Below are positions 49,701-57,408 of a stretch of 64,000 bases of DNA, one piece after another. The position numbers were made by a program, and so were the translations under genes. Numbering within the stretch: position 1 is the first letter of the stretch; each line of letters begins with the position of its first letter. The stretch is from Escherichia phage Cyrano. The notes beneath the pieces were generated by a model, which was given only the letters and a program-made list of their open reading frames with translations, ran no database searches and had not been told where the DNA came from. The stretch lies in the sequence record OV696614; one strand, written 5' to 3'.

Positions 49701-50263
49701 GTCCGTTCGAAATGAATCCTAAGCGTTCTGCCGAAATCAACGTACTCATGACACGTATGGCGGCTGAAATGGGCTTGGGTGAGGAGTTGATACGCCCGAC
49801 TATTGGTATTAAACCCAAAATCATGATCATTCTGGACAATGCGAACGGCAATGACGCTCGTACCGGCTACTTCATGGAGAACGGATACGACGACTTTAAG
49901 GCAAAACTACTGACAGTTGGAGATCTGCGCATGGGCGATCTTTATGTCACGGGTGTTTGTAAGAAGGTTAAGGACAAAGAGAAAGACTATACCAAAGACG
50001 AGATAGGCCAGTTCACAGACTTTATGCGGGAAGAAATTAATCTTGTACGACCAACCTACATTTTGACGTGTGGTAGTCGTTCAACCGCACTATTTAACAA
50101 TAAGAGTAAACCATCAGATCTGATTGGTCGTAAGGAGTACTTCCCAGAGCTTGATGCAACCGTCTTCTACGGATTTAACCCGAATATCCTGTACTTCCGA
50201 CCGGAAGAAGGAGAGCGACTGGAGGCCATTCTGGCTGATATCGCGGAGACAATAAATAAGTAA
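46757..50263 (+). CDS. dnaE: DNA polymerase III alpha subunit (DnaE-type)
   Basis: 1168 aa; N-terminal PHP-like region, polymerase core (GRGSSAGSLVAWCIGIT, palm acidic motifs), typical length. Confidence 0.85.
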   Translation: MKALMVRTDFSLGESALKAENAVKIAREAGYTAVISADSMNIASVIPLQRAAGDDMAVICGVKLNIVDDPTYEHRAKLAKESMRCMESLERGRNYSFTALIKNEQGYRDICELMTAANTREQFYFVPRLSLEQLVSTYAKGNIILLTSDIGSVFQRNDFAKIISTLITAGGKDNFYSVVYPHPTPFYDQINVRAMKVASALKIEPVAFYPAYYESIDDADIKDIAHMVTNNIKIDQPHRLRIPHQRDNAINGRRHLLEALKAFSVRMDVPVTAAMASTTQDSIIDACTWRWHELPPALPKMADDEPATLMKLAVAGLRKRLTTKEFGYTPPASENRVYVERLKYEMDTLTRLGFCGYFLMVRDLMNHSRETGIPVGPGRGSSAGSLVAWCIGITNVDPIRHGLLFERFINPERLDLPDADLDFSQARRHEVIEYLNERYGEDYVAGIPNFTYLGAASALRDTARIYGVESADMAVSKELKNVEDDSLPLEELREQLASLDKYATKYPDAFNAACKLQSLMRGFGRHAAGMIVAGVPLTERTPVERRGDARCIAFDKRYCEAMGLIKLDVLGLATLDLLDSAKRYIKESTGEDINLDAIPLDDRKVLDGFAAGYTQGVFQLESGPMRKLLKDLGGGIEPMSFKTVVATTALFRPGPIQSGMLDDYVSVAKGFMAPHSIHPRLEEVTRETNGVLLYQEQIMQSSRVLAGFSMAEADALRSAIGKKNMDKMKAIGSDFVERAQAGWVTLSLKNGGTVEVHKHAKLDCSDGKRRSYSEAISDGIDYVEIVSEQEGLSKEKAQEIWDAFEKFGGYAFNKSHSVAYSLISYQSMWLKTHYPAEFFAAALTILGEDKHQGLVKDALTYGIRVLPPDVNVSSNRIEIRTLEDGSQALYAPFSAVKGCSENGCQAIMRAREKVGGKFESVAQFDEAVEKRACNSRVRESLHKVGAFASIEPGSLPATDPERLRDQAELMGNLIIDAVKASRPFEMNPKRSAEINVLMTRMAAEMGLGEELIRPTIGIKPKIMIILDNANGNDARTGYFMENGYDDFKAKLLTVGDLRMGDLYVTGVCKKVKDKEKDYTKDEIGQFTDFMREEINLVRPTYILTCGSRSTALFNNKSKPSDLIGRKEYFPELDATVFYGFNPNILYFRPEEGERLEAILADIAETINK

Positions 50264-50267
50264 TAAA

Positions 50268-50291
50268 GAAAACCCGCCTGTTGGCGGGTTT
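50268..50291 (+). terminator. rho-independent terminator after dnaE
   Basis: AAAACCCGCC-tgtt-GGCGGGTTT followed by ATAAAG. Confidence 0.65.
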
Positions 50292-50566
50292 ATAAAGAAT
50301 TATGGCGCTTGTTGAGGAAGTCACTCCTCTTACGCACTTTGTTTTGCCATGCCGGCAGTTAGCTTCTGCCTTTGACTATTCATGCGGCAACCCCGCATTT
50401 CGCCACAATGGGCAATTCACTTTTATGGAATAAACTGGCCGTTGTGTCGATTTAATTAGCATGGCCTTACCATGCTAATTTATTCAACTTGTACAATCCT
50501 ACAAATCTATCCACTCAGGCTTACACCGTCTTCGTTATTGTAGAAATGAGGATCATCAGCGTTGAA

Positions 50567-50782
50567 TCAGCTTAGAGCAACGACATTTGCTGCTGCTGGG
50601 CCTTTAGCACCATTCTCGATAGAGAATTCGACCTGCTGGCCTTCTTCCAAAGTGCGGAAATTATTACTCTGAATTGCCGAAAAATGTACAAAAACATCTT
50701 TACTGCCATCAGCAGGAGAAATAAAGCCAAAGCCTTTATCAGAGTTAAACCATTTTACTAAACCAGTCATTTTATTAGACAT
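50567..50782 (-). CDS. cspA: cold shock protein (CspA family)
   Basis: 71 aa from ATG 50782 with AAGAAGG RBS; RNP motifs KGFGFI and VFVHF. Confidence 0.9.
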
Positions 50783-51111
50783 AGATATTACCTTCTTAAT
50801 TTTGTGAGCCACATAGTGCGGCGAGAATTTGATCTGTATAGATTGGGACTTACTTAGGCACTTAAGGAGGAGACTCACGAAGAAGGGAAATCAGAAGATA
50901 ACACTGAACTGAGACTGCTTTACTAAAACTGCTTACATAAGGTCTGTCTTGCAAACCAACGATGCTATTAACGCATACCCCTTCTTTTCATGCAACCTTT
51001 ATTTTTCAAAGATAACTAATTTTTGTCACCATTGGTTTAGTAAACGTTAACGAACCAGACGATGCCAGACACCTTTACAGAGAACAGATGCCCGCCAATT
51101 GGCGGGCATCA

Positions 51112-51675
51112 TTATGCGCATTTCGCAATATCTTTGCGGCGTTTAATCAGTTTCTCCGCAATTTGCTCTATTTCGTTGAAATCTTTCGAGACGCTGTTTC
51201 GAAGCGCCAGATTCCATTTACTCAAAGTTCGGGCATTTTGGACAATTTGATCGCCCTCTTTAAGTCGTCCGTTATTCATGAGCCATTCAGCCACATCAGC
51301 CCAATCCCAGAGAGGAGACTGGCCTTTTATGCGTTGTACAGGGCAAGGGAAGTCGCCGCTTCCGCGCTTACCGTCTTTGAGCAACGCCACTGCCTGGCGA
51401 GACAGGTCTGTCAGTTCCGCGATATCGCTTAAGCCCACAAGAGCCGAGTCGACGGATTCAACAATTGCACCGATACCGGCTGATTCAATATTGTCGACCG
51501 CAGATGCGATAGCTGCATCAAGTGATTGTGCTTCGCGGTCAAATTCTACATAGACGGAGTTTCCATATGCGCAAATTAGCGCATCGTCACAGCCGTTTTG
51601 GTACAGCGCGTCTTCCAGTCCTTCCGTCTCATACGATACGCCTGAGAGCGTCAGAGTGAAGTTATAAAGCGCCAT
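51112..51675 (-). CDS. two-domain regulator: HicB-like N-domain (uncertain) plus AlpA/Xis-type HTH C-domain
   Basis: 188 aa from ATG 51675 (AAGGAA RBS); C-terminal DLSRQAVALLKDG..FPCP....SPLWDWADVAEWL resembles AlpA-type HTH. Confidence 0.4.
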   Translation of the reverse strand: MALYNFTLTLSGVSYETEGLEDALYQNGCDDALICAYGNSVYVEFDREAQSLDAAIASAVDNIESAGIGAIVESVDSALVGLSDIAELTDLSRQAVALLKDGKRGSGDFPCPVQRIKGQSPLWDWADVAEWLMNNGRLKEGDQIVQNARTLSKWNLALRNSVSKDFNEIEQIAEKLIKRRKDIAKCA

Positions 51676-51735
51676 AGTTTTCCTTTGAAGATAGTTGGAC
51701 AGTTTCTGCAAAAGGCGGCTAATGCCGCCTTGAAA

Positions 51736-51960
51736 TCATTTACAACGATCAACCATTCGTTTGATCTGTTTGGCATGGTTTTCGGGATTACCCGGAGTCG
51801 ACCATACGCTCATTTGGTGAGTTTTGTGTTCACCTTCTGGATTACCGCATCGCAGTCTGCAAAAACAATGTGCAGCACCACCAGCAGCTACCCAGATCCA
51901 GCCTTTACTTAATGCATAGTCAATGGCTGCTTGAATATGCTTATTCGGATGTTGCTTCAT
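51736..51960 (-). CDS. small protein, possible HicA-like toxin
   Basis: 74 aa; weak resemblance to YcfA/HicA pattern (KGW....GG.AH ... TPGNP.NHAKQIKR); immediately upstream of HTH gene. Confidence 0.3.
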   Translation of the reverse strand: MKQHPNKHIQAAIDYALSKGWIWVAAGGAAHCFCRLRCGNPEGEHKTHQMSVWSTPGNPENHAKQIKRMVDRCK

Positions 51961-51977
51961 TCGCCTCAGATAATAGT

Positions 51978-52007
51978 ATTCTATTCACAGTGTTGACATC
52001 TGTCAAC
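51978..52007 (-). promoter_or_regulatory. sigma70-like promoter with overlapping palindromic operator
   Basis: minus strand reads TTGACA-17 nt-TAGAAT then GAGG RBS and ATG at 51960; palindrome GTTGACA-tc-TGTCAAC (51992-52007) overlaps the -35. Confidence 0.5.
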
Positions 52008-52171
52008 GGCGACTGAATTTCATCCGTTCATGCCACACCCCATCCATCTCATGTATGTGACCTAAAGATGGTCAGCACAGCTTACCAAAATAAGACAACT
52101 AATTATCTTCGGTGATCTCAATATCTTCCCCTGAACAAAGTTGACATGACGCCATAAACCCGTTCTCTGTT

Positions 52172-52180
52172 TGATATAAT
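52172..52180 (+). promoter_or_regulatory. extended -10 promoter element (TGaTATAAT)
   Basis: TGATATAAT about 35 nt upstream of the 52214 start. Confidence 0.4.
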
Positions 52181-52213
52181 TGATACAGATTTTATAAGTA
52201 GGAACCTATTAGA

Positions 52214-52645
52214 GTGAACACTGATATTTTTTCTAAAATCATGGCCGATCTGGAGTTCGACCGCGACAACCTTGAGGAAGTATGGCGTAAACAGCCACGG
52301 CTTTTAATGGAGTATGGGTCAAAACTAGCGCAGGCAGATCGAGATGTCGCAGAGGCAAAACTTAACCTTGAAGCTGTTGAAGCAAAGCTATACGACACAG
52401 AGCGTAAGAACTTGAGTATGAACGGCATTAAGTTCAACGAGTCTGTACTGGACGCTAAGGTTAAAACAAACCCACAGTATCTGTCTAAACGGCAGAAGTT
52501 GGATGAAGCACGGCACATCGCAGACATATACAAACATGCTGTCGCCGCCTTTTCGCATCGCCGAGACATGATCGTTCAGGCGTCAAAGATGGCCATCGTT
52601 GAATTAGAGCGATTAGGCTCTGAACGCTTTATTACTCCCCGTTGA
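52214..52645 (+). CDS. hypothetical protein, possibly UvsY-like recombination mediator
   Basis: 143 aa helical protein directly upstream of gp32-like SSB; similarity to T4 UvsY is only a loose impression. Confidence 0.3.
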   Translation: MNTDIFSKIMADLEFDRDNLEEVWRKQPRLLMEYGSKLAQADRDVAEAKLNLEAVEAKLYDTERKNLSMNGIKFNESVLDAKVKTNPQYLSKRQKLDEARHIADIYKHAVAAFSHRRDMIVQASKMAIVELERLGSERFITPR

Positions 52646-55064: not shown

Positions 55065-57404
55065 ATGGCAAAAGGAAAATCCGCACTGGCACTTGCTCTG
55101 AAAAAGAAAATCGGTAGCAACGACGAAATTCAGAAAGTAACTCATTGGATTGACACAGGCTTTCCTCCGTTAAACAAAGCTATTTCCGGTCGTTACGATG
55201 GCGGTTTCCCATGTGGTCGTATCGTAGAAGTATTCGGGCCACCAAGCGCGGGGAAATGTGTTACCGCAGACACCATGCTGCTGACGGAGCGTGGAATGGT
55301 AACAGTGAAAGAACTGTTTGAGATTGAGGGGCACAAAGCAACATGCACTACTCGCGATGTAGAGCATAACGTTGGACTCATCAATGAAAATGGCGTGATA
55401 GAGAAGACCTCACACCTGACATGGAACAACCGTCGCAAATTCAAGCGTATTAAGCTGGCATCAGGCGGTTATATCGAGGCTACGTTCCGTCACCCAATCC
55501 GTGTGGTTGACGACTTAGGTAATGTCGTCTGGCGACATGCTGAAAAAATCAGTGTAGGCGACACGATTCCTTCAATGGTTGGCACACATCAATTCGGCGA
55601 TCAGCACCTGGATGCCAATATCGCAAAACTGATGGGCTATTTAATTGCTGACGGATACGTGGCCTCTGAAAATTCAGTGAATTTTTCTAACACAGATCCT
55701 TTCATCAAGGATGAGTACTACCGCCTCATTTCGCTGGTATCAGACAAGATGCCAGTTACGAGAAAACATAACGGCTCGGAAGACCATGTGCTGTTTAGCA
55801 AAGAGGTGCGTTCGCTGCTTTTTAAAGAGTATGGTCTGGAGTATGAGAAAGCTGCTGGCAAGCAGGTTCCGTTGAGTGTGCGTCGCGCCAATAGCGAGGC
55901 TCAAATTGCATTCCTTCGCGGCTACTTTGAGCTGGAATGCCACGTCAATGATGGTCGCTGCATTGAGGTTGTGAGCGCGAGTGGGCTGCTGCTACAGCAA
56001 ATTCGCCTCATGCTCCTGAATCTGGGGATTACGTCAACTATCTCTGAAAAACACGTCGCGGGTTATGAAAATACATATTACCGGCTGTCATTCAGTGGCT
56101 CTAATTACGACCTTTTTCTGTCAACGATTGGTTTCGAATCTCCGGCACGTTTATCAGTGGCAACCAAACGGGACATTGGTTTTGACCGCACTTACTCAGG
56201 CTATGTTCCGCACATCAGCGGCTTAGTGAAATCACTCTACGAGTCGCTCACCAAGACCACCCGTGAAGACTACGCTCTGGTAGACCACGTTATTGGCCGC
56301 GGCGATCGTGTCGGAATAGACAAACTGCGAGAAATCTATGTCTCCTTCATTGGCAGAAAGAATCGTTTTAACGAGCATCTGTTTGCACAACTGGCAGCGG
56401 TAATTGGCTCTAACTTGTTCTACGACGAAGTCGTGGCTATTGAGGAAGGTGAAGCACCAACGTTCGACGTAGCGATGCCGGAAACACACTCTTTCTGGTC
56501 TAACGGGATTATCAGCCACAACACATTCCTTGCAACAGCAGCGATGATCTCCGCTCAAAAACAAGATGGTCTGGCGGTATTCCTCGATCATGAAAACAGT
56601 TTTGACGTTGGCCTGGCTGTAGCCAATGGCCTGAACGCAGATGAGGATGACGGTCAGTGGGTATACAAGCAGCCAGATACCTTCGAAGACTCTGTAGAGT
56701 TGATCGGCACAATACTTAAATTGGTTCGTGATGAAGAGCTTATCCCCGAATCAGCACCTATCTGTATCGTGGCTGACTCTCTTGCGTCTATGGTTCCGAA
56801 CTCCAAAGCCGAGAAGTTCGAAAAGATGGCTGAAGGCACTGCCAAAGACAAAGATCAGCTAAACATGAACGACAATACGGCACTGGCTCGTGCGACGAGT
56901 GCGAACTTCCCTACTCTGGCTTTGTGGGCACGCAAATACAACGCCTGCATCATCTTCTTGAATCAGGTTCGCACAAAAATCGGTGTAATGTTTGGCGACC
57001 CTACTACGTCGCCAGGTGGAGATTCACCGAAGTTTTACGCTTCTGTGCGCATCCGTCTCGGTGCATCGGTGATGAAGGATGGGAAAGAGAAGATCGGCCA
57101 GGACGTAGGCGCAGAATGCATCAAAAACAAAGTTGCACCACCGTATGGCAAATGCACCTGGAAATTCTACTTCGATCCTACTCGTGGCCTCGACGTTATC
57201 GAGTCGCTCGTCGAGTACATGCTGGAAGAAGGATACCTGCCAAAGAACGCCAGCGGGCGAGTTGAAATTGGTGACAAGAAATACACCAAATCGCAGATCG
57301 TCGACATGTATCGGGAGAAGCCATTAGCAGAAATCATTGCTGCGTTACAGGCGATAGATGACCGACGAGAGAAGACATCACCAACAGAAGAACTAGAAGA
57401 TTAA
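55065..57404 (+). CDS. recA: RecA-family recombinase precursor interrupted by an intein
   Basis: exteins: GRIVEVFGPPSAGK / TFLATAAMISAQKQDGLAVFLDHENSFD ... KFYASVRIRLG match RecA/UvsX core; 422 aa insert between P-loop Lys and Thr. Confidence 0.85.
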   Translation: MAKGKSALALALKKKIGSNDEIQKVTHWIDTGFPPLNKAISGRYDGGFPCGRIVEVFGPPSAGKCVTADTMLLTERGMVTVKELFEIEGHKATCTTRDVEHNVGLINENGVIEKTSHLTWNNRRKFKRIKLASGGYIEATFRHPIRVVDDLGNVVWRHAEKISVGDTIPSMVGTHQFGDQHLDANIAKLMGYLIADGYVASENSVNFSNTDPFIKDEYYRLISLVSDKMPVTRKHNGSEDHVLFSKEVRSLLFKEYGLEYEKAAGKQVPLSVRRANSEAQIAFLRGYFELECHVNDGRCIEVVSASGLLLQQIRLMLLNLGITSTISEKHVAGYENTYYRLSFSGSNYDLFLSTIGFESPARLSVATKRDIGFDRTYSGYVPHISGLVKSLYESLTKTTREDYALVDHVIGRGDRVGIDKLREIYVSFIGRKNRFNEHLFAQLAAVIGSNLFYDEVVAIEEGEAPTFDVAMPETHSFWSNGIISHNTFLATAAMISAQKQDGLAVFLDHENSFDVGLAVANGLNADEDDGQWVYKQPDTFEDSVELIGTILKLVRDEELIPESAPICIVADSLASMVPNSKAEKFEKMAEGTAKDKDQLNMNDNTALARATSANFPTLALWARKYNACIIFLNQVRTKIGVMFGDPTTSPGGDSPKFYASVRIRLGASVMKDGKEKIGQDVGAECIKNKVAPPYGKCTWKFYFDPTRGLDVIESLVEYMLEEGYLPKNASGRVEIGDKKYTKSQIVDMYREKPLAEIIAALQAIDDRREKTSPTEELED
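55257..56522 (+). mobile_element. intein with LAGLIDADG homing endonuclease domain inside recA P-loop
   Basis: begins with Cys (GK|CVTADT), ends His-Asn followed by Thr (ISHN|TF); internal LMGYLIADGYV and FLRGYFELECHV blocks. Confidence 0.75.
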
Positions 57405-57408
57405 TTAT

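Follow-up and report, generated by a model that had tools for sequence, protein, structure and literature searches.

In almost all type II toxin-antitoxin systems, the DNA-binding domain is found on the antitoxin. In MqsRA, the toxin gene comes first and the antitoxin comprises an N-terminal toxin-binding domain and a C-terminal helix-turn-helix (HTH) that represses at a palindrome in the promoter, with a structural zinc in one of the two partners; MqsR is RelE-like, the zinc site is found in the antitoxin and the HTH is of the Xre type. HicAB systems are also encoded toxin first. HicA has the topology alpha-beta-beta-beta-alpha, with an invariant, catalytic His at the start of beta-2 (G-x-H motif); the second protein binds its partner by an N-terminal domain, to which a C-terminal DNA-binding domain may be added, and the promoter contains a palindromic operator. 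Class 1 HicAB lacks the DNA-binding domain and classes 3/4 possess it, the domains described for HicB being of the HTH or RHH type (Gerdes, PMC10865869). PDC-M06 is one of 145 phage defence candidates predicted by "guilt-by-embedding" in loci for BREX, DISARM or type I RM, and is given as cassette CAS_00046 with a listed count of 497 (Payne et al., bioRxiv 10.1101/2024.01.29.577857). The searched main text and supplementary files of that paper contain no fold, mechanism, operator or experiment for PDC-M06, the DefensePredictor study left out the PDC systems as unvalidated, and no characterization turned up in literature searches on PDC-M06 or on the accessions (RefSeq) and identifiers (PHROG) given below.

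The locus investigated here is a two-gene cassette, A followed by B, in a 64,000-nt stretch of Escherichia phage Cyrano (OV696614; hereafter the window), and is a member of the computational PDC-M06 family of PADLOC. Compared to MqsRA, the predicted zinc site of the cassette is found in the putative toxin A, and both folds differ. To HicAB it is similar in gene order, in the two-domain organization of B (partner binding being predicted for its N-terminal domain) and in the palindrome at the promoter; the predicted topology of A is marginally HicA-like, and its H31 may correspond to the catalytic His of HicA. B occurs in forms with and without a DNA-binding domain, paralleling HicAB classes 3/4 and 1, respectively, but its winged helix belongs to a different class than the HTH or RHH of HicB (PMC10865869). 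The pair previously labelled "HicA/HicB" is better described as a HicAB-like architecture, with a marginally HicA-like topology in A and a non-HicB partner. Residues 80–135 of B, with a predicted helix-turn-helix, a wing and the motif ...FP.P.....G.S.LW.W..V..W..., resemble AlpA/excisionase proteins (MerR superfamily; Phage_AlpA, PF05930), but all matches to Phage_AlpA fall below the Pfam threshold, and in B the domain forms one protein with a conserved N-terminal domain, is always paired with A and is not associated with an integrase.

Organization of the locus

Both open reading frames were found as described in an earlier note on this DNA, with the minus-strand gene for a 74-aa protein first and B second (Table 1). 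That note had given 188 aa for the second protein and 25 nt between the genes. As every homologue begins with MALYNF, B is 187 aa long and starts at the ATG at 51675, matching the 564 nt of the RefSeq annotation, and the gap between A and B is therefore 60 nt. The 25-nt gap originates from a TTG at 51711 (199-aa ORF), which was rejected as the start of B because of these homologues and because it is located in the tail of the intergenic hairpin. The near-consensus promoter reported previously was recovered by the promoter scan, matching 11 of 12 consensus positions and ranking first among five promoter-like sites in 2.4 kb, and its -35 hexamer was indeed seen within the left arm of the operator, the enclosing palindrome being GTTGACAgaTGTCAAC. 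The anatomy of the earlier reading is thus correct with small corrections, also regarding the cspA neighbour and the divergent recombination operon, both of which were found. On the 3' side of A-B lies a cspA-type gene on the minus strand, together with an Rfam cspA thermoregulator (50542-50960). Upstream is a divergent plus-strand operon, whose products are a 143-aa protein, a gp32-like protein, a 5'-3' exonuclease and an intein-containing RecA-like protein.

Table 1 Coordinates of the features of the A-B cassette in the window.
Feature	Position	Strand	Description
Gene A	51736-51960	minus	74 aa; putative toxin/effector
Shine-Dalgarno of gene A	51967-51964	minus	GAGG
Gene B	51112-51675	minus	187 aa; putative antitoxin/autorepressor
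Shine-Dalgarno of gene B	51685-51681	minus	AAGGA
Sigma-70-type promoter	51978-52006	minus	TTGACA (52006-52001), 17 nt, TAGAAT (51983-51978); promoter scan
Palindromic operator	52007-51992	minus	GTTGACA-ga-TGTCAAC; half-sites GTTGAC, centres 10 bp apart; sequence
Intergenic GC-rich hairpin	51712-51731	minus	AAGGCGGC-atta-GCCGCCTT, then TTG; terminator- or attenuator-like; sequence
Intrinsic terminator 3' of B	51110-51087	minus	strong; 10-bp stem, 8 G-C pairs; terminator scan
B N-terminal domain, aa 1-76	51448-51675	minus	ferredoxin-like; motifs GCDD, FDRE
B winged helix-turn-helix, aa 80-135	51271-51438	minus	AlpA/excisionase/MerR-like; predicted operator-binding domain
B C-terminal long-helix pair, aa 143-186	51118-51249	minus	AF2 secondary structure

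The region is 99.7–99.8% identical to non-mobilisable E. coli plasmids of ~100–115 kb and was found in 110 of 5,426 complete genomes, exclusively on plasmids. The carrier plasmids resemble phage-plasmids of the SSU5/pHCM2 type, e.g. Escherichia phages CMS-2020a and PhiR41_1. In the related SSU5-like phage PhiR41_1, the ~2 kb corresponding to 50230-52214 (the dnaE terminator region, the cspA-type gene and its 5'UTR, both cassette genes and the promoter) are missing and the 143-aa gene follows ~125 nt after dnaE; the slot is therefore variable, and the cold-shock gene and the A-B cassette form an accessory insertion in it. This slot, flanked by dnaE and the gp32-like operon, holds the cassette in Enterobacter SSU5-like plasmids too, and a Yersinia pestis contig of ~108 kb, which belongs to the same size class, carries it as well.

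Family assignment

Profile scans yielded no meaningful match in Pfam or NCBIfam for either protein. When compared to PADLOC, A matched six PDC-M06A models (best 1.2e-19) and B matched PDC-M06B (1.3e-32, residues 4–162), with the two genes adjacent, co-oriented and in the same order as PDC-M06A and PDC-M06B. In PHROGs, A belongs to phrog_5923 (unknown function) and B to phrog_2620 ("excisionase and transcriptional regulator"), and the RefSeq entries are WP_001351985 ("hypothetical protein") and WP_001240351 ("AlpA family / helix-turn-helix transcriptional regulator"), respectively. A profile search gave 716 clusters at 50% identity for the A family, and sequence searches of the PDB with the family profiles of A and B returned chance-level matches only. 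Among B-family members, 17 of 45 matched CagE_TrbE_VirB and 10 of 45 Phage_AlpA in Pfam, all weakly and below threshold. Sub-threshold matches to RuBisCO_small were seen in 12 of 60 members of the A family (best E 1e-4); these are probably spurious and are probably also the reason for the stray name "ribulose bisphosphate carboxylase small subunit" of a Shewanella homologue.

The A family is widespread, being found in several phyla, in prophages and in phage-plasmids of E. coli, Enterobacter and Yersinia that are common in the clinic, and has no Pfam family, no characterized member and only the catalogue label PDC-M06.

Pairing and distribution

A B homologue directly follows A in 79 of 80 species-representative loci, ranging from Gammaproteobacteria (including Enterobacterales) to Planctomycetota, and the one remaining locus (L072) is a decayed remnant. 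The pairing is likewise present in 62 IMG/VR viral contigs, and an ATGA overlap of the two genes is frequent outside Enterobacterales. The A-B pair, as judged from these sequences, is an ancient and tightly linked unit. The size of B varies: ~185 aa in Enterobacterales, ~148 aa in Pasteurellaceae, Neisseria, Acinetobacter and Moraxellaceae, and 84–98 aa, comprising the N-terminal domain only, in Planctomycetota, Latescibacterota, Cardiobacteriaceae and others. The N-terminal domain is the only part of B conserved across all phyla, and the conserved core of the cassette therefore consists of A and this domain, with the DNA-binding part as an add-on. The forms with and without a DNA-binding domain provide a natural comparison. 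In a Pirellulales MAG, the pair of A and a short B is found in two tandem copies on one contig (L065, 1235–2403).

In Providencia, Pantoea, Morganella and a Salmonella-labelled genome, the pair stands alone between housekeeping genes, and in Histophilus it is located inside a P2-like prophage, beside a Phd/YoeB pair. The neighbours at 18 chromosomal loci were mostly metabolic or regulatory, with scattered defence matches (mad3, mad8, Tin and PDC-M42C), and a defence-island association is therefore not evident in this sample. The layout is that of a generic type II toxin-antitoxin system, i.e. two small, co-oriented and linked genes with a patchy occurrence on mobile elements and chromosomes, and the genomic behaviour is that of a selfish, mobile, self-contained two-gene cassette.

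Protein A

The AF2 model of A (pLDDT 89.9) has a helix at residues 7–18, strands at 22–25 and 32–37, a short loop helix at 43–47, a strand at 49–53 and a helix at 59–72, making A a small alpha-beta-beta-(knuckle)-beta-alpha protein. Among 196 representatives of the family, H4, K7, W21, H31, C38, C/H48, T55, P56, H62, A63 and C73 are near-invariant; H31, directly before strand 32–37, is found in 190 of them. The Cys/His residues alternate between two sets, C38/C48/C73/H75 and C38/H45/H48/C73 (+ C34), the protein of the window having the second. As positions switching together in this way are a signature of a tetrahedral zinc site, here tying the beta2-beta3 loop to the C-terminus, a zinc site comprising C38, H45/H48 and C73 is predicted for A. 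No equivalent of this site is seen in the E. coli HicA sequence and its alignment. A role of the invariant His/Lys/His residues as catalytic residues of an RNase is plausible.

The earlier note had described A as having weak HicA/YcfA-like features, with which the AF2 model agrees marginally in its topology. A did not match the Pfam HicA_toxin family (PF07927) at E ≤ 1, and neither did any of 60 family members at E ≤ 10; NCBIfam gave no HicA match for A, the family-wide Pfam scans gave neither HicA nor HicB, and a Foldseek search of A against the PDB returned nothing at E < 1 and no HicA. An hhalign comparison of the A family to an E. coli-type HicA alignment gave a 20-column match with 83% probability (the alignment being narrow, at ≥66% identity), pairing the N-terminal HPNKxI..A of A with the C-terminal PRHPxxEI of HicA; this match was rejected as an indication of homology since it is non-colinear. 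The HicA alignment consists of close relatives only, obtained by a word-indexed search, and since the other solved HicA structures escape the E. coli HicA profile too, the negative sequence results should not be given much weight. Judged from the model, A is marginally HicA-like in topology, is not a demonstrable member of the HicA family, and is possibly a very distant relative.

Protein B

B was modelled by AF2 with a pLDDT of 91.6. Residues 1–76 form a ferredoxin-like beta-alpha-beta-beta-alpha-beta domain, residues 80–135 a helix-turn-helix with a wing, and residues 143–186 two long helices. A relation to HicB, with an RNase H-like fold, had been anticipated for B, but the partial RNase H fold of HicB (beta-beta-beta-alpha-beta) was not found in the N-terminal domain, which is ferredoxin-like instead and is the predicted A-binding and neutralizing domain. 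The assignment of an AlpA-type HTH to the C-terminal half was right in kind, considering the winged helix of the model and the weak Phage_AlpA matches, and this winged helix is similar to the DNA-binding domains found in the excisionase/terminase class. A C-terminal DNA-binding domain acting at a promoter palindrome, as in HicB, is present in B as an analogous feature, the binding being predicted. The helix pair at the C-terminus is specific to the ~185-aa Enterobacterales form and missing in the ~148-aa forms of Pasteurellaceae, Neisseria and Acinetobacter; we infer that it serves dimerization.

Operator and proposed autorepression

Besides the operator itself, no match to GTTGAC-N4-GTCAAC (≤1 mismatch) was found in the window. 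As 0.22 matches are expected by chance in 64 kb, and 19 of 100 shuffles contained at least one, the operator is not significant within the window alone, and its significance is instead due to conservation across genomes. Of the 52 loci whose B bears the HTH, 45 have the palindrome GTT[G/T]AC-N4-GT[C/A]AAC 43–69 nt upstream of the start codon of A, as opposed to none of the 25 loci whose B lacks the HTH (Fisher p = 3e-14, with loci treated as independent and kinship ignored). Degenerate, near-palindromic copies are visible in six of the seven exceptions, and all 45 strict palindromes in 866 kb of loci are found at this very spot upstream of A. In an alignment anchored on the palindrome, only the two half-sites and, 17 nt downstream, a TA...T -10 element stand out by a high information content, with unrelated flanks, and the 62 viral contigs show the same pattern. 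A role of the palindrome in serving the divergent operon was rejected, since its distance to A is fixed in unrelated genomic contexts.

The co-variation with the DNA-binding domain strongly supports that the winged helix of B recognizes the palindrome and that B represses its own operon there. Repression would occur by promoter occlusion, since the left half-site coincides with the -35 hexamer. The autoregulation proposed in the earlier note is thereby backed by comparative sequence data, the palindrome accompanying the HTH and conservation being confined to it and the -10 element. In the Yersinia pestis locus (L011) and in L128–L132, A is 83 aa long, B is intact and the right half-site of the operator is degenerate (GTTGACacgcGCTCAC in L011); autoregulation may be weakened in this lineage.

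Putative toxin assignment and the intergenic hairpin

A is inactivated by nonsense or frameshift mutations with B intact in six loci (L016, L041, L053, L057, L078 and L140), and the reverse was seen once, in a metagenomic contig (L115) with an 80-bp deletion of the RBS and first 15 codons of B and an intact A. Six of seven inactivations thus affect A, even though B offers more sequence for mutations to hit; the binomial probability is ~0.004 if A makes up ~30% of the target, assuming independence and no sequencing or assembly errors. This asymmetric decay, seen in a small number of loci, is suggestive of A being the toxin. The opposite assignment, with B as toxin and A as antitoxin, was rejected because the DNA-binding domain sits on B and the inactivated gene is A.

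The hairpin between A and B has a folding energy of -16 to -18 kcal/mol, with a z-score of only -1.6 for the 76-nt stretch, and is followed by a short U/T run. An Rfam scan of 50400-52400 identified the cspA thermoregulator only, leaving the hairpin without an RNA family match. Hairpins occur at the same position in most Enterobacterales loci, with different stem sequences between genera (spacers of L002–L046), and are missing in clades with the ATGA overlap. A terminator-like structure at this position would favour the toxin mRNA over the antitoxin mRNA and therefore fits poorly to a simple toxin-antitoxin model; the hairpin may be an attenuator, a 3' stabilizer or a processing site.

Proposed function and alternatives

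The cassette is probably an autoregulated, toxin-first, type II toxin-antitoxin-like system of an uncharacterized family (PDC-M06), carried as accessory cargo on an SSU5/pHCM2-like E. coli phage-plasmid. The matches of both proteins to the paired PADLOC models, the strict co-occurrence of the pair, its mobility, the co-variation of the operator with the DNA-binding domain of B, the asymmetric decay and the parallel to the HicAB classes are counted for this reading, whereas the A-B hairpin, the contig in which A is kept and the start of B lost, and the lack of an evident defence-island signal at the 18 chromosomal loci are counted against it. The arrangement of the genes suggests that RNA polymerase, starting from TTGACA-17-TAGAAT, would transcribe A and then B on a common mRNA. 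The ferredoxin-like domain of B would bind and neutralize A, as suggested by their strict co-occurrence, and its AlpA-type winged helix, as a dimer, would bind GTTGAC-N4-GTCAAC, occlude the promoter and repress the operon. A would be the effector, a small zinc-stabilized alpha/beta protein of HicA-like (dsRBD-like) topology with invariant His4, Lys7, His31 and His62. In the least certain step, A would most likely be a metal-independent RNase causing growth arrest once B is lost, for example upon plasmid loss or phage infection. On a phage-plasmid, the cassette would serve for addiction (stability), for abortive infection or for both.

Regarding the alternatives, a bona fide HicAB system, i.e. 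a HicA mRNA interferase with a HicB antitoxin comprising a partial RNase H fold and a DNA-binding domain, is very unlikely. The pair could also be non-toxic and regulatory, with B acting for the phage-plasmid either as a transcription factor or as a recombination directionality factor of the excisionase type, and A as a small zinc-binding co-regulator or anti-repressor. Both database labels of B, from phrog_2620 and RefSeq, and the likeness of its winged helix to excisionase/terminase-class domains are in line with such a role, as is the loss of A with B kept in some loci, which would also fit A simply being dispensable. However, with the operator occurring once in 64 kb and solely at its own promoter in 866 kb, no regulon is visible; furthermore, A-B can stand on its own, flanked by housekeeping genes and with neither an integrase nor a phage in the vicinity, B remains paired with A in several phyla where it has no DNA-binding domain, and the host replicon is a plasmid, for which excision is not needed. 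We consider a purely regulatory pair unlikely.

The main role could instead be anti-phage defence by abortive infection or superinfection exclusion, with A as an effector released or activated on infection, a view that overlaps with the toxin-antitoxin reading. The embedding in loci for BREX, DISARM or type I RM from which PDC-M06 was proposed, the frequent carriage by temperate phages and phage-plasmids (62 IMG/VR contigs), the Histophilus P2-like prophage with its additional toxin-antitoxin pair, and the few defence genes beside chromosomal copies (mad3, mad8, Tin, PDC-M42C) all point in this direction. On the other hand, most neighbours at the 18 chromosomal loci are metabolic or regulatory and no sensor domain is evident, and defence as the main role is regarded as possible but somewhat doubtful. 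Returning to the toxin-antitoxin-like system favoured here, a more far-reaching version can tentatively be proposed, in which A would represent a new RNase-toxin family (zinc-clamped, with a His-Lys-His active site, and only convergently or very distantly HicA-like), the ferredoxin-like GCDD/FDRE domain of B would represent a novel fold among antitoxins, the pair would serve its phage-plasmids and prophages for abortive infection or superinfection exclusion, and the Enterobacterales hairpin would set the toxin:antitoxin ratio.

The architecture follows the well-known logic of toxin-antitoxin systems and is no surprise in kind. What is now available is a concrete model with a likely toxin gene, candidate residues (H4, K7, H31, H62 and the Cys/His zinc ligands) and an exact operator over the -35 hexamer. 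If true, it would represent a new type of toxin-antitoxin pair, which could help account for the stability of SSU5-like phage-plasmids or for phage exclusion.

Elements in the neighbouring genes

The cspA thermoregulator (RF01766) just downstream of B is a full-length match (187.6 bits, E 2e-51) spanning the 5'UTR and the cold-shock gene, i.e. this plasmid- or phage-borne cspA-like gene retains an RNA thermosensor. In the Enterobacter relatives, other genes are found where the csp gene stands in the window. The RecA-like gene of the divergent operon (~55066-57405, plus strand; L001 10167–12506) is annotated as a LAGLIDADG homing endonuclease, and its counterparts in relatives match RecA_N, Intein_splicing and LAGLIDADG_3, indicating an intein-containing RecA. 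The dnaE gene of the window is a single ORF of 1168 aa; in Enterobacter relatives (SSU5-like plasmid L082, 10053–14305), an HNH/NUMOD4 homing-endonuclease gene splits the dnaE homologue into two ORFs.
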